DNA from: a bacterium
Lineage (GTDB): Bacteria > Vulcanimicrobiota > Xenobia > Xenobiales > JADMJV01
Assembly (NCBI GenBank): GCA_018780265.1
Contig: JADMJV010000035.1
Location: 10,491-74,490, forward strand
DNA: 64,000 bases
Direction: 5' to 3'
The translations under genes and the position numbers were made by a program. Positions 2,693-46,795 of this stretch are shown piece by piece. Under the pieces are notes generated by a model. The model searched no databases and was not told the origin of the DNA. It was given only the letters and a program-made list of their open reading frames with translations. Numbering within the stretch: the first letter of the stretch is position 1; each line of letters opens with the position of its first letter.

Positions 2693-3868
2693 ATGGAAGG
2701 CCAAGAATTGGACGAATGGCTTCGCTCTGCGGTCGCCCAGGGCAAACTGCATTCCCAAGGCTCGTTTTCCCTGGACACCGGGGCGGCGGCCCGCAAATTT
2801 GGCCAATACGCCCTCACCGATAGCTGGCAGATAGTAGCACGCCTGCTTCGTTCGGCCGTGCTGTGCGCCCCCTCTGTCCAACTCGAGGTGACCAAAACAC
2901 GGACGCAGGTGTCTATTCCTGGCTTTGTGTCGGGCGTCGCCAACTTGAAGTCTGTATTTGATCAGGTTCTCTCATCGGTGCCCGAGGAACGAGAGTTTTC
3001 CCTGGCTGTCAACAGCCTGGTGGCTGACCACTGCAAAGAACTGACCATCACCCGCGGCGAACCATCGCGCATCGCCCTTCTAAAGGTAGGGCAAGATCGT
3101 CGGGTTGAGGTGGCCGAAGCTTTCGATCTCATTCAAACAGAGAACTTCACCCGCATCGAATGGACCGAAGTCGGACGACGAACTCTGGATAAAGACCTGG
3201 AGCGTTTGCGCCAGGGGTTTCGCTACAGCCGGATCCCCATCAACTTGAACGGGGAGAAGCTCGACATCCCTTTTGGACGCCCTCGTGGACCGGGCCTGTG
3301 GAAACACCTGGGCGCCGCCCGGCAGATTCTTGTAAAGCCGTCCTGGTTTCAGCCCTCCACCTATTTCTGGGCCGATCACCACGCTGTCGAATTTCGCCTC
3401 TACCACCCTCAGGCCATCCGCAACGAAGTGGGTCTGGCCACGCCGGGGCTGGCCAGTTGCCGGCTCTGGGCTGGACAAAGCGGGCCGGAGCAGTCCTGTT
3501 TTCTGGCCCTGGCCTGCCGCTGCGACCCCGAACGGCCCGGACAGGTTGACTGGGTCTATCGAGGTCAGTGCGTTGACAGCCAGCCAGAGCGCTTCGCCCA
3601 GCCTGGACTGCAGGCCGTTGTCGCCTGCGAAGGTCTTCCCTTCGATGTAACCGGAGAGCGGCTCATAGAGGGGCCGGCCCGGGCAGCCCGCCTTCAATTG
3701 GTCCGCGACTGGGCTAACTGTCTGCATGATTTTTTGTGTGAGCGCTATCCTAACAGCGGAGACCTGGCCGCCCACCGCGCTCTCTACGACTCCAAACTGC
3801 GCGCCTACCCCCAGCTTTTGCCGCAAACTCGACGGGTCGTCGAGCTTTTGCAGCGGCTCTCGCCTTGA
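2693..3868 (+). CDS. hypothetical protein
   Basis: 391-aa ORF with normal amino-acid composition. The opposite-strand 352-aa ORF looks like a GC shadow. No motif recognised. Confidence 0.55.
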   Translation: MEGQELDEWLRSAVAQGKLHSQGSFSLDTGAAARKFGQYALTDSWQIVARLLRSAVLCAPSVQLEVTKTRTQVSIPGFVSGVANLKSVFDQVLSSVPEEREFSLAVNSLVADHCKELTITRGEPSRIALLKVGQDRRVEVAEAFDLIQTENFTRIEWTEVGRRTLDKDLERLRQGFRYSRIPINLNGEKLDIPFGRPRGPGLWKHLGAARQILVKPSWFQPSTYFWADHHAVEFRLYHPQAIRNEVGLATPGLASCRLWAGQSGPEQSCFLALACRCDPERPGQVDWVYRGQCVDSQPERFAQPGLQAVVACEGLPFDVTGERLIEGPARAARLQLVRDWANCLHDFLCERYPNSGDLAAHRALYDSKLRAYPQLLPQTRRVVELLQRLSP

Positions 3869-4065
3869 ATTCCCCGCCGCGAGTTTCGCCGGGGCGATTT
3901 CAGGCTGGCCGAATTTCTGCTGGCCACCGTGCAGGCAGGCGCTCTGACCGGTTTTGGAAGCGCTCTGGGATTGGCCTGCACTTCGCTGGTGATGATGCAA
4001 CTGGCTGTCGTCGCGGGAATCGCAGCCCCCTCTTTGATCGCGAGCCTGCCCGCCTCGAACCAGAA

Positions 4066-39537: not shown

Positions 39538-39918
39538 CAGAGCAAGTCAGCTGGACGGTCGCGGGTCGGTGTATCACCGGCTTGAGGAAAGTCCGGGCTC
39601 CCAAGGGCAGGATGCTGGATAACGTCCAGTGAGGGCGACCTCGAGGATAGTGCCACAGAAATGGTGACCGCCGTTCTTCGGAACGGTAAGGGTGCAACGG
39701 TGGGGTAAGAGCCCACCAGCAGTGCGGTGACGCACTGGCTAGGTAAACCCCGTTCGGGAGCAAGACTCATTTGGAGACGAAGGCCTGGCCTTCCTCGGCG
39801 GCCCGTCGAGCGTTCTTCGAGTATGTTGCATCAGGAAAACGGTAACGTTTTTCGCAGAGAGATGGCCGTCGGCGGCTTCGGCCGTGACAGAACCCGGCTT
39901 ACAGGCTGACTTGCAGAG
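39538..39918 (+). ncRNA. rnpB: RNase P RNA, bacterial type A
   Basis: Universal GAGGAAAGTCCGGGCTC, GGTAAGAGCCCACCAGC and ACAGAACCCGGCTTAC boxes. The P1 helix GCAAGTCAGCT (39542-39552) pairs with GGCTGACTTGC (39904-39914). Confidence 0.95.
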
Positions 39919-40100: not shown

Positions 40101-40496
40101 GTGACAGCAATGACGGAGCGGTTTGCCAACCTGGGCGTGAAATTTGCCTACATTTTTGGTTCCCGCGCTCGCGGCCAGGATCGACCCGACAGTGACCTGG
40201 ATGTGGCCGTCTGGTACGCCCCCGAATTGGACTGCATGGAACGCTTTCAGCGCAATTGCCAGTTGCAGGAGAGTCTGGAGCAGGAGTTTGGCGGTGCCGT
40301 AGACTTGATCATTTTAAACGACGCCAAACCGACTCTGCAAAACGAAGCCGTTCTGCGGGGCAAGGCCATCTATCCAGTAGACGATCCAGCAGCCATTATT
40401 CGCTTCGAAGCTCGCATACGCCAGCGCCACGAAGACTACGCCTACAGCCAGCGATTCTTCACCAAGGCTCGCCGGGCCCGAATGGCTCACGAATGA
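40101..40496 (+). CDS. mntA: MntA-type nucleotidyltransferase antitoxin (type VII TA)
   Basis: IFGSRARGQDRPDSDLDVAV is the minimal nucleotidyltransferase GS...DxD motif. GTG start. Confidence 0.85.
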   Translation: MTAMTERFANLGVKFAYIFGSRARGQDRPDSDLDVAVWYAPELDCMERFQRNCQLQESLEQEFGGAVDLIILNDAKPTLQNEAVLRGKAIYPVDDPAAIIRFEARIRQRHEDYAYSQRFFTKARRARMAHE

Positions 40497-40900
40497 CTCT
40501 ACACCGCGATCTACTCGAAGAATTAGAGAAGAATCTAAGGCTGCTTGAGGACCTGAAGACGCTTGATTGTGAAGAGTTTCTGGCCAATCCCAGACACTAC
40601 CTTCTGGCGGAGCGGTGCTTCCAACTGGCGATACAATGCGTGCTGGACATGGGTTACACGCTCGCTTCGTTGAGGCAATGGCAACGACCCGGCGATGGAC
40701 GCGACGCCATTCGCCTGATGGGACGTCAGGGTGTCATCCCCACCGACTTCGCGGAACGAATTGCGCCTATGGCCAACTTCAGAAACATCCTGGTGCACGC
40801 CTATCTGGGCATCAACCGCGAACTGGTCTATCGGTATTTGAGCCAAACCGATGACTTCCGGGCATTTATCGGCTATCTGGAAACCTACCTGGCCGACTAG
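40493..40900 (+). CDS. hepT: HepT-type HEPN (DUF86) toxin
   Basis: ATGA overlap with mntA. RNILVHAY matches the R-x4-H-x-Y HEPN motif. Confidence 0.85.
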   Translation: MTLHRDLLEELEKNLRLLEDLKTLDCEEFLANPRHYLLAERCFQLAIQCVLDMGYTLASLRQWQRPGDGRDAIRLMGRQGVIPTDFAERIAPMANFRNILVHAYLGINRELVYRYLSQTDDFRAFIGYLETYLAD

Positions 40901-42011: not shown

Positions 42012-43244
42012 CTACAGCCTTATGGTGGTGTAGACGCGCACATCAGCGTCGGCGGCTACCTCAGGATATGACAAAACCGGTAAGAGTGGGAAGGAAGGCT
42101 CGACCAGACGGCGCAAAAACCGGCGGGGACGGGGACTGCATAGCAATACCGGACGGACCCCTCTGCTCTCTGCTTTTTCCACCCCTTTGGCCACGCTGGT
42201 CAACAGTTTGAGACTGACGTCCACGTCCAGGTCAAACCAAATCGCCATAGAGGCGGGCCGCACATCTTTGAGAATGCTGCTCTCCATTTCAGGCGACACC
42301 AGCATGGCGTGAACGATCCCTTGAGCATCGGCATATTCACGGCACAGTTGAAAGTTGAGGGAAGCGCGCACAAATTCGGTCAACTGGTCCGGGTCCTGCG
42401 AGCGCAGTTTGTGACTTTCGACTGCCTCCAAGACGGCCGTCAGGTCGCGAATTTTAATCCCCTCGCGCAGCAGGTTGCGCAAAATTTGGCGCAATCCAGA
42501 GACAGTAAGATGGTCAGGAAAGAGCGCCTTGTAGAGACCCGCATGGGTCTTGCGGACTGCTTCCACCAACCTCTCTGTCTCGCGAAAACCCAGCAACCGG
42601 TGGGCATTGCGGGAGATCACCTGATACAGGCCCAGCATCAGGTCCCCAAAGTCAGGCGGTTGAGCGGCACTCCAAATAAACTCACAAGAGCCCTGCACCA
42701 AAATGCGACCGGCGCAGTCCAGGTCCGGGCAATGGCGCACCTCCAGACTGAGCAATGGGAGGCCCGTTTCAACCTGCAATTTTTGGCGGTGCAAAGTCGT
42801 GAGGGAAACCACCGGCTGAACCCATTCCGCCTGACTCAACTCGATCCAGATGCGGGATACTTCAAGTTGCGCCCTTAACTCTGAAAGGCCGCCTTTCCAG
42901 CGCTTGGGCACCTGACCCAGCCCCTTGACCAACTTGACCGGAGTAGGACCTGGACGACTGCGCTGCACCAGTGCAATGGCCTGAGCAGCGGACCGAAATA
43001 GACCTTCGGGAATTTCCTGGCCCGGATCTAACCCCACCAGATGCTCCGAGGTCATTTCACAGCACTCGACGATGGGCACCCCCATTTCCTGGGCCGACCA
43101 AAGCAGTTCGGGCACCTGATTTCCGGTGACGCAGGCAACAACCGACGGCGTTTCCCCTGGCGAGTAAGCCAGGGCTAAAGCCGCAGACTCGGGGGCCAGC
43201 AGCACCACTTCAGTCCGGCTTAATTGAGTCGGGTCCACGGCCAC
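42012..43244 (-). CDS. soluble FlhB_C-like + FlhA_C-like fusion protein (no membrane domain)
   Basis: Residues ~10-95 resemble the post-cleavage FlhB/YscU C-domain: ALALAYSPGETPSVVACVTGNQVPELLWSAQEMGVPIVECCEMTSEHLVGLDPGQEIPEGLFRSAAQAIALV. The rest is colinear with FlhA_C: LRQILRNLLREGIKIRDLTAVLEAVES and RPVLLCSPRPRRFLRRLVEPSFPLLPVLSYPEV. A GTG start at 43244 or 43238 sits after GTGAGG. Confidence 0.75.
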   Translation of the reverse strand: MAVDPTQLSRTEVVLLAPESAALALAYSPGETPSVVACVTGNQVPELLWSAQEMGVPIVECCEMTSEHLVGLDPGQEIPEGLFRSAAQAIALVQRSRPGPTPVKLVKGLGQVPKRWKGGLSELRAQLEVSRIWIELSQAEWVQPVVSLTTLHRQKLQVETGLPLLSLEVRHCPDLDCAGRILVQGSCEFIWSAAQPPDFGDLMLGLYQVISRNAHRLLGFRETERLVEAVRKTHAGLYKALFPDHLTVSGLRQILRNLLREGIKIRDLTAVLEAVESHKLRSQDPDQLTEFVRASLNFQLCREYADAQGIVHAMLVSPEMESSILKDVRPASMAIWFDLDVDVSLKLLTSVAKGVEKAESRGVRPVLLCSPRPRRFLRRLVEPSFPLLPVLSYPEVAADADVRVYTTIRL

Positions 43245-43472
43245 CTCACTTGCCGATTGACCGGCAAAGTCCTCTGCTTATCGAACAGTTGAATAGGGCT
43301 TGCAAGGGCCTTTTCGCCAGGGCAAGCCGATTCCTGGATTGTCTGTGGATCTATTCGGGGGAACAAGTTGATAACTAATTGTAAACGAAACACCAGGTCT
43401 ATTGAATCGGGTTCTATTTTTGCCAACTATAGCCATTTGCCGAAAGGCTAAAGTCGGCTTGTCGAGGGGGCG

Positions 43473-43501
43473 TTGACAGAGATGCGCCGCCGGAATAAGA
43501 T
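43473..43501 (+). promoter_or_regulatory. candidate sigma70-type promoter for the RNA array
   Basis: TTGACA (43473-43478), a 17-nt spacer, then TAAGAT (43496-43501). It follows the most AT-rich part of the intergenic region. Confidence 0.4.
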
Positions 43502-43530
43502 GCAGACCTCAGCCGCGGAAACGCGGACGA

Positions 43531-43610
43531 CGCCTCAACAAGCGATAGAGTTGACGCCCTGCTGAGCGAAATAGGCAGGGGTAGCTTGCAGACCTCAGCA
43601 AGCCGAAGCG
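43531..43610 (+). repeat. RNA module copy 1 (divergent P1/P2, canonical P3)
   Basis: TCAAC/GTTGA, CCTGC/GCAGG, GGTAGC, then GCTTGC-agacctca-GCAAGC (43584-43603). Confidence 0.6.
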
Positions 43611-43699
43611 CTGAGGCTTCGTTAACAATCCTTAGCGAGGCCCGAGACGAATCGGAGAGTCTGGTCGTAGTGACCGCGCCCTCTGGCTCGAGTAGTCGG

Positions 43700-43782
43700 G
43701 GTCCCAATGCTGGAACGGCGGGCGGTTGGGAGGTTCTGTTTCACCTTAGAAGCAGGGGTAGCTTGCATACCTGAGCAGGCCG
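43700..43782 (+). repeat. RNA module copy 2
   Basis: P1 CCCAA/TTGGG (43703-43707 / 43726-43730) with loop TGCTGGAACGGCGGGCGG, then GGTAGCTTGC-atacctga-GCAGGC. Confidence 0.65.
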
Positions 43783-43913
43783 CGCAAAGACGGAGCGAGC
43801 CCCGTCGTGGCCCAAGTCCTCTTCGGACCCGTGAGGAGAATCGACTTGTCCGGGAATCACATTCTAGGGTGTGAGGAAAGGCAAGAAGACCGAAGGAAAA
43901 TTCATGGATGCGG

Positions 43914-44002
43914 GAGCCTGGTGCTGGATAGGTGGCGGCCAGGGGGCGCTGACTCAGCCTGAATGAGTCAGGGGTAGCGTGCAGACCCGGTTACGCAGTC
44001 GG
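43914..44002 (+). repeat. RNA module copy 3
   Basis: P1 CCTGG/CCAGG, P2 CTGACTCA-gcctgaa-TGAGTCAG, and GGTAGCGT...ACGC. Confidence 0.75.
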
Positions 44003-44163
44003 ACAACATCGACTTGAGCGCATCAGCGTGGTGTAGTGTGGTCTTCGTTATGGTTGTGGAGCCGTGAGGCGAGACGACTCGAGCGGGAAGCGAAAGCGGA
44101 AAGTGCGAGTGGAACGTAACCACCAAAAGAAGTGCCCGGTGACGGGAGGCTTCGATGAGCGAG

Positions 44164-44250
44164 GATACCTGGCGTTGGAGGTCGGCAGCCAGGGGGCACT
44201 GATTCAGCCTGAATGAATCAGAGGTAGCTTGCATACTTGAGCAAGTCGCC
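44164..44250 (+). repeat. RNA module copy 4
   Basis: P1 CCTGG/CCAGG, P2 CTGATTCA-gcctgaa-TGAATCAG, and P3 GCTTGC-atacttga-GCAAGT. Confidence 0.75.
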
Positions 44251-44385
44251 CGGTCCAGAGGGCGTGAGTGAATCGAAAGCAATTGGACGAGGCTCATTGA
44301 CGAGTTCAGGGTGCCGTGAGGCAAGTAAAAGGGCCGGACAGAAAGCGCAAGCGGAAAGTTCGGTTTGACCTGGATTACGATGTGG

Positions 44386-44470
44386 GAGCCTGGCGTTGGA
44401 GGTCGGCAGCCAGGGGGCCCTGATACAGCCCGGATGTTTCAGAGGTAACTTGCAGACTTCAGCAAGCCGC
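44386..44470 (+). repeat. RNA module copy 5
   Basis: P1 CCTGG/CCAGG, P2 CTGATACA-gcccgga-TGTTTCAG, and P3 CTTGC-agacttca-GCAAG. Confidence 0.75.
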
Positions 44471-44634
44471 TGCGCTCATTCAGCGAGAGTCAAACCTTGG
44501 ACAAGTGAGAGAGGCCTCGGGCCTGATAGGGAACCGCAAGGAGAATGCTCTGGTCGGGAAATCGCCGCAAGGCGAGGAAACGGCCAGACACCCTGTCTAC
44601 AGTATCTTACTGGAGATGCTGGAATTGGCTTGAG

Positions 44635-44722
44635 GAGCCCGGTGCAGGTGGGTAAGGCGACCGGGGGGCACTGTCCTGGCCCGACGCAGGACAGGGGTAG
44701 CGTGCAGACCTGAGCACGTCGG
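44635..44722 (+). repeat. RNA module copy 6
   Basis: P1 CCCGG/CCGGG, P2 CTGTCCTG-gcccgacg-CAGGACAG, and P3 GCGTGC-agacctga-GCACGT. Confidence 0.75.
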
Positions 44723-44858
44723 TGAGTTACAGCACCGAAAGCGAAGTGAAGCGCTGTAAAGAGGCTGCAGAAGAGGCCGGGGACCGTGAGGTTCAAGTTC
44801 TTGTCGCGGGGAAGCCGTAAGGCGGAAAGCGAGAAGACCCCAGGAATCTCTTTCTGCA

Positions 44859-44898
44859 GGGCCTGGTGTTGGTGGGGCAGGCAGCCAGGCTGAACGAA
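44859..44898 (+). repeat. RNA module copy 7, truncated (P1 only, then terminator)
   Basis: GCCTGG-tgttggtggggcaggcag-CCAGGC is followed directly by the terminator hairpin. Confidence 0.55.
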
Positions 44899-44932
44899 GC
44901 CGTCTGAGAGATCAGACGGCTTTTGTTGTTTT
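44899..44932 (+). terminator. intrinsic terminator closing the RNA array (also abuts the convergent minus-strand gene)
   Basis: GCCGTCTGA-gaga-TCAGACGGC followed by TTTTGTTGTTTT. Confidence 0.75.
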
Positions 44933-45534
44933 CAGGGCTTCCAGCGCACCACCAGGGCGATGCCGCGGTCCTCGCGGTGCTGGTAGGGCTCGAAGCGTGG
45001 CTGCAACTTGCGGTCCTTACACTCCTGAAAAAGCTGGGTGAGGGCTTCCGGCAATTTAGGACGGCCCAAGGCCCAACGGGTGAACCGCGAGGCCTTTGCA
45101 TGCTTGGGAATCCAGCTTTCCAGTTCGACCAACCAGGGAAGCGGACATTGCTGCCACTCTTTGACCTTCAGGTCTTGCTGCAGCCAACCCTCGATATGCC
45201 GAAAAGAGGGCGGACCCAAACTCCGCAGCTTGGGATAAGGGTCTGGCGTGCGCTGCTGACTGGCGTGAAGCTCTTCCTGGAGCAAGTGCCTCAAGTCGAC
45301 CGGCTGAAAGCTCATCCGCAAGAGGGTGACTTCGTCTTTTCCTTGATCGGCGGCGGCTACAGCAGAAGACTGCAGTTGCTCTCGAGCCAGGCTGATCTTC
45401 TGCAAAATTTTGTCGAGCGAGTCCCCTTGCTGGGCCCCCCAGGCCCTGGCCAGCAGTTGATGCTTTTCGCGAGAACTCTGGTCGCGAGCTCGGCGGGCCC
45501 GCGCCTGCAAACTGGCCACGTCTACCTGTGTCAT
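44932..45534 (-). CDS. hypothetical protein
   Basis: 200-aa ORF with plausible composition. The overlapping + strand 250-aa ORF looks like a shadow frame. No motif recognised. Confidence 0.55.
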   Translation of the reverse strand: MTQVDVASLQARARRARDQSSREKHQLLARAWGAQQGDSLDKILQKISLAREQLQSSAVAAADQGKDEVTLLRMSFQPVDLRHLLQEELHASQQRTPDPYPKLRSLGPPSFRHIEGWLQQDLKVKEWQQCPLPWLVELESWIPKHAKASRFTRWALGRPKLPEALTQLFQECKDRKLQPRFEPYQHREDRGIALVVRWKP

Positions 45535-45736: not shown

Positions 45737-46795
45737 TCAAACGGAATTTTCCCAACGCAGCCGAGGCCACGAAGGGGCCAGCGGGTGAAGGCGGGATCCC
45801 ACAACCGAAGCGGCCAGCATCTCGACATCGGGCGGAATTTCATCGAAGGCCAACACTGGAGTGCGCCTCAAGTCGAAGGGAAGCAGTTCAAAGAGGTCAC
45901 GGCGCAAGTTGCCGGCCACTACCAGGACAGCCTCTCCATGTTCATGCTGAGACCAATGCAACTCGGCCTGCAACTGGCCCAGCGCCATGCCAAGAAACCA
46001 GGACTCTGGCCCATCGGGCCGGGCCAATTCGCGGCGAAGCCTTTTGGAGGTTGATTCGCTCAGGGTGACATGCACCAACTGGCCCTGCTCATTGAGCCAG
46101 GGCGTGGTCAGGCGCGGTCCCAGGGCCAGGCGCATGGCGCGCAGGCGGCGCCCGGCATCGCGAGGGACCGACTGATAGGCGTCGACCAGGTCGGCCAGGG
46201 GGCCGATGCTCACACGCTCCTCCAGCATGCAGCGCAGGGCCTGAGCGAAGCCGACCCCCGGCGAGGTCAGGCCCAGGTGGGTGAGTCGCTGCTTGAGCCA
46301 GTCGACAGAGAGGCACCAGTGGAGACGATTCTCCAGGCGATCGCAGACATGCCCAACCAAGAGCGCCTCTGGACCCAACAGGTGACAGCCCAGTTGACGA
46401 GCTCCTTCGGCTCGGGAATCGGGAATCCAGCGGCCTTCCAGCCCGTAGACGGGTTCTTGGGCCCATTCTCCCATTAAAAGCGACACCGAGTCAGAATTTC
46501 CGGTGGCAAACCAGCGCCCCGGGTAAAGCAAGCCTTGTTCCCAGGGGCCTCCGGCCAGCCGAAAACGATAGGCACATGAGTCCAGCGAGCGGTCGCAGTC
46601 CAGTCGTAGCGAGGGGAGAGGTAGGCCGTAGGCGACCAGCAGTTGCTGGTTGACCCCTTGCAGTCGGCTCCACCAGGCATTGCCGGGTTGTAGCAGCTCT
46701 TGCCAGAGGCGTTCGCCCATGGCCAGCTCCAGGTGAGGGCACCCATCCAAAGATGGGGGGAGATCCCCCGAGCCTTTCTTGAAGCGCCCGCTCAT
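45737..46795 (-). CDS. soluble FlhA_C (FHIPEP cytoplasmic domain)-like protein, no membrane domain
   Basis: Colinear with the FlhA C-terminal domain as I remember it. YPGRWFATGN matches YPGRWLAINPG, EPVYGLEGRWI matches DPAFGLDAIWI, LLVGHVCDRL matches VVATHLNHLI, and ALRCMLEERVSIGPLADLVDAYQS matches VLQNLLDEKVPIRDMRTILETLAE. The start is uncertain (46795 or 46720). Confidence 0.8.
   Translation of the reverse strand: MSGRFKKGSGDLPPSLDGCPHLELAMGERLWQELLQPGNAWWSRLQGVNQQLLVAYGLPLPSLRLDCDRSLDSCAYRFRLAGGPWEQGLLYPGRWFATGNSDSVSLLMGEWAQEPVYGLEGRWIPDSRAEGARQLGCHLLGPEALLVGHVCDRLENRLHWCLSVDWLKQRLTHLGLTSPGVGFAQALRCMLEERVSIGPLADLVDAYQSVPRDAGRRLRAMRLALGPRLTTPWLNEQGQLVHVTLSESTSKRLRRELARPDGPESWFLGMALGQLQAELHWSQHEHGEAVLVVAGNLRRDLFELLPFDLRRTPVLAFDEIPPDVEMLAASVVGSRLHPLAPSWPRLRWENSV

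Follow-up and report, generated by a model that had tools for sequence, protein, structure and literature searches.

A tandem array of pseudoknotted modules forms a stand-alone structured RNA gene in the Eremiobacterota

We analyzed a stretch of 64,000 nucleotides (nt) from a Vulcanimicrobiota genome (contig JADMJV010000035.1, positions 10,491 to 74,490 of the forward strand; hereafter the window, with positions counted from its first letter) and found that positions 43473-44932 of the + strand are a stand-alone gene for a structured non-coding RNA of ~1.42 kb, with a conserved promoter and a conserved terminator of its own. In the RNA, six full units of 180-250 nt follow one another head to tail and are closed by a terminal hairpin; each unit has a core of ~95 nt with three hairpins. 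We are almost certain that this is a genuine and new structured RNA gene. Its family is restricted to the Eremiobacterota (Vulcanimicrobiota, mainly the class Xenobia), and its arrays range in size from 1 to 13 modules (0.3 to 3.5 kb).

A reading made from the letters alone (hereafter the sequence-only reading) had described six copies of a three-hairpin block and a truncated seventh, and had quoted their P1, P2 and P3 arms. All seven copies were recovered in place, and the arm sequences are present as given. A covariance model trained on the window copies (R1) matched the six full copies at 63-97 bits and the truncated one (44855-44903) at 15 bits; these scores confirm position and are not independent significance. 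The 18-nt core pattern CAGRGGTARCNTGCAKAC occurs six times, always on the + strand and inside the region, against 0.00 occurrences in 100 shuffles. A repeat search returned a six-member family over the CAGRGGUARC-P3 segment with spacings of 177, 216, 250, 221 and 252 nt, and recovered the boxes shared by the linkers as well. Tandem Repeats Finder did not detect the array because its copies are too diverged, the window units being 62-86% identical to one another.

From 5' to 3', a unit consists of P1, junction J1/2 (GGGGC), P2 with the loop GCCYGAA, junction J2/3 (GGGUA) and P3 with the loop AGACY, then P4, whose 8-nt loop pairs downstream in a second pseudoknot, an AGAGGC box, P5, a CC-GYGA-GG hairpin and variable hairpins. 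All six cores lie on the + strand. The first (43519-43612; 63 bits with R1, 59 bits with a refined model, R2) is of a 'first-type', with the P1 loop AAGCGAUAGAG, P2 CCUGC/GCAGG and P3 GCUUGC/GCAAGC. Module 2 (43696-43789; 80 bits with R1, together with the ortholog alignment) has P1 CCCAA/UUGGG, P2 CUGUUUC/GAAGCAG and P3 GCUUGC/GCAGGC; module 3 (43910-44005; 92 bits) has P1 CCUGG/CCAGG, P2 CUGACUCA/UGAGUCAG and P3 GCGU/ACGC. Modules 4 (44161-44255) and 5 (44382-44476) score 97 and 96 bits, and module 6 (44631-44728; 95 bits) has P1 CCCGG/CCGGG, P2 CUGUCCUG/CAGGACAG and P3 GCGUGC/GCACGU.

The six window copies share the three-hairpin fold, and compensatory changes occur in 11 of its 25 predicted pairs within the window alone. 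Across 98 genomic modules, 92.1% of cells were paired, compared with 68.9% in shuffles and 23-53% in controls with the partner slid, and 22 of 23 pairs showed double changes, bearing out the claim of tandem, covarying RNA modules. An independent set of 150 environmental modules gave 93.1% against 78.3% in shuffles (slid controls 20-50%). This covariation support is comparable in strength to that of accepted RNA families. A blind mutual-information scan found an additional pair outside the helices, which belongs to a pseudoknot of two base pairs (bp), PK1, between the P3 loop and J2/3: the R of CAG-R-GGUAGC pairs with the Y of the P3 loop AGAC-Y, as G-C in 72 cases, A-U in 18 and G-U in 1. PK1 covaries inside the window, with A-U in modules 4 (A44222-U44237, beside G44223-C44236) and 5 (A44443-U44458, beside G44444-C44457) and G-C in modules 1, 2, 3 and 6, and it is 100% paired in the independent environmental set. 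There, a candidate third contact between GGY of J1/2 and RCC of the P2 loop is 89% paired with some covariation. The core holds ~25 invariant nucleotides in addition to the pseudoknot, and those that are unpaired gather at the junctions and loops around it. The P1 helix is conserved in sequence and not just in pairing (C8-G40 in 145 of 145 modules, G11-C37 in 138 of 145).

The sequence-only reading had oriented the RNA by its G-U wobbles. P3 pair 108:155 is G-U in 40 of 145 modules, and such pairs are frequent and tolerated on the + strand only, so the + strand is the functional one. The + strand also folds better by 115 kcal/mol (minimum free energy −598 against −484 kcal/mol), and its guanine-cytosine skew is +0.14 to +0.30 over 43400-44999 (+ strand G-rich), compared with near zero or negative values in the flanking genes.

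These data bear on the view that the region is no RNA gene at all, being instead a DNA-level repeat (REP- or MITE-like, iterons, CRISPR-like) or a repetitive coding region. Many intergenic copies per genome would fit such a repeat, but the compensatory changes keep helices and pseudoknots, wobble pairs are confined to one strand, conservation extends to promoter and terminator, and the arrays are syntenic orthologs, not mobile elements, with neither terminal inverted repeats nor spacer-like unique inserts. We regard this view as effectively refuted. A REP, BIME, MITE or Correia-like element was rejected on the strand-specific G-U pairs and on the module-by-module orthology of the ordered arrays across four genomes. 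A CRISPR array was rejected on repeats that are ~95 nt long and diverged, intervening stretches that are conserved and structured, and Pfam scans of the flanking genes that showed no cas-like neighbors. As for coding, neither strand of the region has a stop-free stretch longer than 156 codons, and the internal open reading frames (ORFs) are short and in mixed frames, as had been noticed from the sequence. Only 1 of 25, 2 of 28, 1 of 31 and 2 of 20 indels separating the window from four syntenic genomic orthologs are divisible by three (6 of 20 for the environmental contig L160). These frame-breaking indels among syntenic orthologs, which share no conserved ORF, exclude a coding function.

The promoter and terminator that the sequence-only reading had taken to frame a single ~1.4 kb non-coding transcript were both found by scans, and they are the only strong sites of their types in the region. 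The sigma-70-type promoter (43473-43501, +) has a −35 box TTGACA at 43473-43478, a 17-nt spacer and a −10 box TAAGAT at 43496-43501 (10 of 12 matches), and the predicted primary transcript runs from about 43509 (approximate start, 43508-43516) to 44932. The intrinsic terminator (44896-44932, +) has a 12-bp stem (44896-44923), a 4-nt loop and a T-rich tail, and its stem covaries between orthologs (GCCGUCUGA/UCAGACGGC versus GCCGCUUGA/UCAGGCGGC). The 'truncated seventh copy' before it is a terminal P1-type hairpin (44861-44890, +; GCCUGG...CCAGGC), which is kept in orthologs with covariation (GUCCGG/CCGGAC) and also ends the 13-module environmental RNAs. Right after the −10 box, positions 43502-43513 (GCAGACCUCAGC) duplicate the P3 loop and 3' arm, and this duplication is kept in all orthologs.

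The sequence-only reading had treated the stretches between cores as linkers with two shared boxes. The boxes are real: CCGTGAGG, the CC-GYGA-GG hairpin box, occurs four times against 0.1 expected, and a AAGCGGAAAG-like box occurs twice. The stretches are not mere spacers, however, for a second pseudoknot and GNRA-capped hairpins sit there. In the alignment of the window with its orthologs, each unit continues after P3 with a P4 of 4-5 bp whose 8-nt loop pairs with a downstream segment. In unit 3 (43998-44037, +), P4 is 43998-44001/44010-44013 and loop 44003-44008 pairs with 44032-44037, with one A-A mismatch in the window and ACAACA/UGUUGU in orthologs. In unit 4 (44247-44288, +; P4 44247-44251/44260-44264), loop 44253-44257 (GUCCA) pairs with 44284-44288 (UGGAC) and covaries as AUCCA/UGGAU in the orthologs L023, L045 and L049. 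These same three loci show CGUUG/CAACG for the P4 of unit 5 (44468-44509, +; P4 44468-44472/44481-44485, CGCUG/CAGCG), whose loop 44475-44479 (CUCAU) pairs with 44505-44509 (GUGAG) and reads CUCAC/GUGAG in a fourth ortholog, L097. The second pseudoknot of unit 6 (44720-44759, +; P4 44720-44724/44733-44737; loop 44727-44732, UUACAG, with 44754-44759, CUGUAA) covaries in L097 as CUGCG/CGCAG. Further downstream, the hairpin P6 of unit 3 (44061-44070, +; GCC-GUGA-GGC) has equivalents on the same strand at 44313-44322 (unit 4), at 44783-44792 (unit 6; ACC-GUGA-GGU), near 43830 (unit 2; CC-GUGA-GG) and near 44538 (unit 5; CC-GCAA-GG). Since the linkers are conserved and structured, the true repeat is the whole unit of 180-250 nt.

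We found no known family for this RNA, in agreement with the sequence-only reading, which had recognized none. An Rfam 15 cmscan of the whole window at gathering score returned a single match, a bacterial RNase P RNA of class A (39543-39917, +; 280.8 bits), which precedes the array by 3.6 kb on the same strand, an adjacency kept in orthologs. At E<=10, the region 43200-45000 gave six chance-level matches, all far below threshold; the best, RcsR1 (21.5 bits against a threshold of 60), sits on the terminator. Among twelve related loci, Rfam found only a tmRNA (transfer-messenger RNA), on the environmental contig L178. ARAGORN found no tRNA or tmRNA anywhere in the window. The models for OLE, GOLLD, ROOL, HEARO and raiA (RF01071, RF01998 and others) gave no match at gathering score or at E<=10, and hammerhead, twister, twister-sister, pistol, hatchet and HDV-like ribozymes had no Rfam match in the window or the related loci. 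Likenesses seen by eye to 5S rRNA helix I, the GGUAG of the tRNA D-loop and the 23S GTPase center were dropped as coincidental, having no model support. A type III antitoxin RNA (ToxI-like) was rejected, given 180-250 nt units of only 62-86% identity, a next gene that is convergent and lacks a Pfam match, and other neighbors that are unrelated. Full-text searches of the literature on non-coding RNA of Eremiobacterota, Xenobia or WPS-2 and on new large RNAs retrieved no description of such an RNA.

To place the family phylogenetically, we scanned one genome per species with the core pattern, which gave 117 loci, and ran R1 on these. Over the first 100 loci it matched 87 modules with E<=0.01, all in genomes labeled Vulcanimicrobiota, Eremiobacterota, Xenobia, unnamed 'Bacterium' or 'uncultured Burkholderiales' (metagenome-assembled genomes, MAGs, of SRP329715), and none in ~75 chance pattern hits from other phyla. 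An nhmmer profile made three partial matches among those chance hits (L046, L047 and L092; E ~3e-4 to 8e-4), covering 39-57 model positions around the pattern. The refined R2 model raised the count to 126 modules. Overall, the covariance model and profile searches of related genomes and metagenomes found more than 800 further modules, in genomes of the Eremiobacterota (Vulcanimicrobiota/Xenobia) or in environmental contigs, all of them in tandem arrays or single-module versions. A phage association was rejected: six pattern hits on viral contigs were chance matches of 22-48 model positions.

Four of the genomic loci (L023, L045, L049 and L097) share the neighborhood of the window array (aldehyde dehydrogenase, RNase P RNA, a 366-amino-acid membrane protein, the array and a convergent 200-amino-acid gene), with flanking proteins 51-85% identical to those of the window. 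Modules correspond one to one among these orthologs, and the promoter (TTGACAG-N17 followed by TAGGAT, TAGTAT or TAAGAT), 5' sequence and terminator are conserved. Module number differs: four in L049, which has lost some, five in L097, L023 and L045, and six in the window, whose extra module, the first, is absent from the four genomic orthologs. Individual genomes (MAGs) carry at least 4-5 arrays, at further loci with unrelated neighbors. Several arrays lie in MAGs labeled 'uncultured Burkholderiales bacterium' (L006, L026, L029 and L097 in CAZYPN01; L011 and L031 in CAZWUN01; L051, L063 and L101 in CAYYHB01). Because L097 shares the window's gene order and its proteins reach 85% identity, much as those of a Vulcanimicrobiota MAG do, the label or the binning of those MAGs is probably wrong.

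A pattern scan of metagenomes found at least 120 loci, in which the module profile counted 706 modules, at least one in each locus listed. In most of the listed loci the array fills an entire contig of 1.0-3.9 kb, and the longest arrays have 13 modules over ~3.5 kb (L125, L147, L175, L176 and L226). Among the matches listed, 70 of 120 contigs start 40-80 nt before the anchor of the first module, with ends staggered by a few nt; most open with the characteristic 'first-type' module, and many stop within the terminal P1-type hairpin or the terminator. One contig (L139; 1441 nt, 97% identical) spans 43516-44956 of the window, starting 15 nt after the −10 box and ending 24 nt past the T-run, in keeping with the predicted transcript. 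Such array-only contigs look like assembled transcripts. JGI numbers contigs by decreasing length, and array contigs carry low numbers (one 3.5 kb contig is number 54 in its assembly); we therefore took these assemblies to be metatranscriptomes in which the RNA is among the longest, hence abundant, transcripts. The RNA thus appears to be abundantly transcribed as a full-length molecule.

These contigs also bear on a precursor role, in which the transcript would be cut into active unit RNAs of ~200-250 nt by a host RNase or by a new self-cleaving ribozyme in each module. The regular repeat, the invariant nucleotides and pseudoknot of the core, and the existence of a separate ~300-nt gene with a single module agree with it, and known self-cleaving ribozymes often occur in tandem. 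However, single environmental contigs cover complete arrays, some with 13 modules, and their 5' ends gather at the first module, not at every module, which makes wholesale processing into unit RNAs unlikely. With no known ribozyme matched by the Rfam search above and no conserved junction resembling a cleavage site identified, we consider a precursor quite improbable.

Three further features of the environmental contigs deserve mention. In the 13-module contigs, spacing alternates between ~260 and ~295 nt from the fourth module on, which suggests that long arrays grew through duplication of a two-module block. One of the 13-module contigs, L178, runs into a complete tmRNA (3300-3888; RF00023, 143.6 bits), the junction lying inside the terminal P1-type hairpin at a shared GGCGAGGA; it is probably a chimeric assembly of two abundant RNAs. 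A second type of ORF-poor environmental contig (L130, L156, L158, L193, L201 and L214; 1.0-1.5 kb) has a single divergent core, GGACAACCGCGACC...GGAGCAGGGGUAGCGUGCAGACC, at ~900-1000 nt counted from the oriented start and followed by a P1-type hairpin, with ~900 nt of conserved upstream sequence that has no Rfam match. These contigs may represent another large RNA that shares the module.

For function we favor, with the chances somewhat short of even, an RNA that serves as a multivalent platform of high capacity, either sponge or scaffold, to which one partner binds in many copies. Each unit would be an autonomous folding and recognition module, and stringing units together would give multivalency; the partner would most likely be a protein that recognizes the invariant pocket of CUG/CAG, GGGUAGC and AGACC, with capacity set by the number of modules and of paralogues. 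We prefer additive multivalent action to a single closed architecture because a module can stand alone, because module number is flexible from 1 to 13, even between orthologs, and because there are several paralogous arrays. Sponge and scaffold had already been among the roles offered by the sequence-only reading and remain the best guess; its third suggestion, a precursor cut into small RNAs, was weakened by the contigs spanning full arrays.

Several observations weigh against the platform. Known protein-titration sites are far simpler than a double-pseudoknot unit of ~250 nt. Every module position has its own sequence, kept from ortholog to ortholog, and the elements at the two ends are specialized, as would also fit a single integrated three-dimensional architecture. 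Genomic context points to no partner: when flanking ORFs of ~40 arrays were clustered, only synteny groups of the same orthologous locus recurred. The sole conserved downstream gene, the convergent 200-amino-acid gene after the terminator, has no Pfam match; with just 12 homologues, this lineage-specific hypothetical protein is not a plausible partner. The signs of abundant full-length transcription, contig boundaries and JGI numbering, are indirect. Folding energy of a single unit is unremarkable and uninformative (z-score −1.55 on the + strand, +0.37 on the − strand). Finally, the one known bacterial paradigm for such sponges, titration of CsrA/RsmA, gains nothing from the motif counts.

The sequence-only reading had seen the linkers as rich in GGA and hence like CsrA or Shine-Dalgarno sites, which would make the RNA a CsrB/RsmZ-type sponge that titrates a CsrA-family protein through GGA motifs. 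The RNA is indeed purine-rich, some P1 loops read GGAGGUC or GGAGGAC, and, like CsrB, it is multi-copy and apparently abundant. The GGA content proved to be a matter of composition only: against 300 dinucleotide shuffles, GGA occurs 42 times (42.7 expected), ANGGA 5 times (9.6) and AGGA 9 times (12.7). The analogy fails at the motif level because these motifs are not enriched and the invariant, universal core contains no GGA; moreover, GGA-bearing P1 loops are missing from many modules. We therefore rejected a CsrA sponge as the motif-based explanation and consider it very improbable.

An architecture made of RNA only deserves more weight, although we doubt it. Modules would pack through GNRA tetraloops, pseudoknots and the CCUGG/CCAGG helix into a rod, ring or cage, a cis-linked counterpart of the ROOL, GOLLD and OLE homo-oligomers in which the superstructure is the functional entity. 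GNRA-capped hairpins number 11 in the array RNA (4.4 +/- 2.1 expected), the variable hairpins often being capped in this way; of 591 units taken from all sources, 83% have GYGA as the P6 loop; and the sequence conservation of P1 and the position-specific conservation of modules, with their specialized ends, agree with such packing. Precedent comes from cryo-electron microscopy of ROOL, GOLLD and OLE, which shows large bacterial RNAs in quaternary assemblies made of RNA only (PMC12286853). Module number is not fixed, however: it varies by one or two between orthologs and falls to one in the single-module RNA. A tetraloop-receptor test for covariation between the type of P6 tetraloop and P1 pair 10:38 of the neighboring module gave no signal.

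Another proposal is an array of aptamers, in which the ligand of every pseudoknotted core would be a small molecule or ion that the RNA detects, buffers or keeps in store, and single modules are possible riboswitches. The clustering of invariant unpaired nucleotides around the pseudoknot recalls riboswitch aptamers. Furthermore, L057 (4155-4385), L238 (~1744-1980) and L239 each have one module followed by a terminator, on the same strand as and upstream of the gene for an ECF-transporter S component (PF12822, FmnP/RibU-like). Two genomes share this version of ~300 nt with its own strong terminator, which lies ~50 nt upstream of the transporter gene. A transporter homologue of 72% identity still has the arrangement, but homologues at 55-58% identity lack the module, ~100 nt separate module and terminator with no evident anti-terminator, and Rfam found no FMN riboswitch on L057. 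For the arrays, a riboswitch was rejected by position: most end in a terminator that faces a convergent gene, and no consistent gene lies downstream. We read the one-module version as an autonomous RNA gene rather than a riboswitch, and an array of aptamers seems improbable to us.

Neighbors of the arrays have unrelated functions. Pfam matches include FHIPEP, metallophosphoesterase, clostripain and the ECF S component, and translations examined by eye add look-alikes of an RND pump, an ABC transporter, a DinB-type polymerase and a subtilase. The FHIPEP/FlhB fusion gene upstream of the window array was rejected as a partner, being absent from the ortholog L097. It encodes 410 amino acids (42012-43244, −), joining an FlhB C-terminal domain (PF01312, residues 8-93) to the C-terminal part of FHIPEP/FlhA (residues 205-399). 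On the other side of the array, a 352-amino-acid protein (45737-46795, −) matches only positions 332-656 of the FHIPEP profile. Both flanking genes encode cytoplasmic pieces only of the flagellar/type III export gate, with the N-terminal (membrane) part of the FHIPEP profile unmatched, which is unusual. Between the RNase P RNA and the gene for the 366-amino-acid membrane protein, which are ~160 nt apart in the ortholog L045, the window has a toxin-antitoxin pair, a nucleotidyltransferase (Polbeta/MNT; 40101-40496, +) and a HepT ribonuclease (~40500-40900, +). The pair thus seems to be an insertion that only the window's lineage has.

To our knowledge, bacterial non-coding RNAs longer than 1 kb are extremely rare apart from rRNA, and the Eremiobacterota have almost no experimental genetics. 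Large ornate RNAs known so far are few, and every one of them has led into new biology, RNA nanocages and membrane ribonucleoproteins being examples. It is possible, and we put this forward with the chances well short of even, that the array RNA is the founding member of an unrecognized class of giant bacterial RNAs: cis-polymers of 1-13 autonomous double-pseudoknot modules, up to ~3.5 kb and thus longer than 23S rRNA, present several times in each genome across a soil phylum that is uncultured and abundant worldwide, ranking with the longest assembled, and hence probably most abundant, non-ribosomal transcripts, and building a new ribonucleoprotein or RNA-only superstructure with a function unlike that of known RNA classes. 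The RNA seems highly expressed in many soil and peat samples and probably has a major regulatory or structural part in an uncultured lineage of ecological importance. It could serve as a specific Eremiobacterota marker in metatranscriptomes, and a single unit of ~250 nt is a tractable, testable object for RNA structural biology.

Among known systems, the proteobacterial CsrB/CsrC, RsmX/Y/Z and CrcZ RNAs resemble the array RNA in being stand-alone genes with a promoter and terminator, one motif repeated along the transcript, several paralogues per genome and a repeat number that varies by species. Each of their repeats, however, is a simple hairpin of 10-20 nt with a GGA loop, and the RNAs measure 100-400 nt, whereas the array RNA has double-pseudoknot units of 180-300 nt in RNAs of 1.4-3.5 kb, no enrichment of GGA and no Rfam match. 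The ToxI, CptI and TenpI antitoxin RNAs are likewise tandem direct-repeat non-coding RNAs with a terminator at the end. Theirs are near-identical units of 34-40 nt directly upstream of the gene for an endoribonuclease toxin that cuts the RNA into monomers; the units described here are 5-8 times longer and diverged, with no recurring adjacent toxin gene, and the full-length RNA seems to persist. Strings of 2-4 pseudoknotted domains are found in tmRNA (PK1-PK4) and in the exonuclease-resistant (xrRNA) and dumbbell elements of flavivirus 3' untranslated regions, serving trans-translation and exonuclease stalling. The likeness, an analogy, may go no further than serial pseudoknots: the array RNA has up to 13 elements and shares no homology with these RNAs.

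A further comparison is with OLE, GOLLD, ROOL, HEARO and raiA. By loose usage the array RNA is itself a large ornate RNA, being large, non-coding and built of many covariation-supported helices and pseudoknots, and like these RNAs it is rich in pseudoknots and GNRA loops, apparently abundant, and of a kind whose function was unknown at discovery. It has no sequence or model similarity to them, and they are single non-repetitive folds of 200-800 nt, some of which form homo-oligomers in trans. We know of no precedent in bacteria for a cis-polymer of up to 13 double-pseudoknot modules. The array RNA, which is chromosomal and was not found on phage contigs, is a longer, internal tandem polymer of paralogous modules and is built on another principle, in which 1 to 13 complex modules, each folding on its own, are strung into a long chain.

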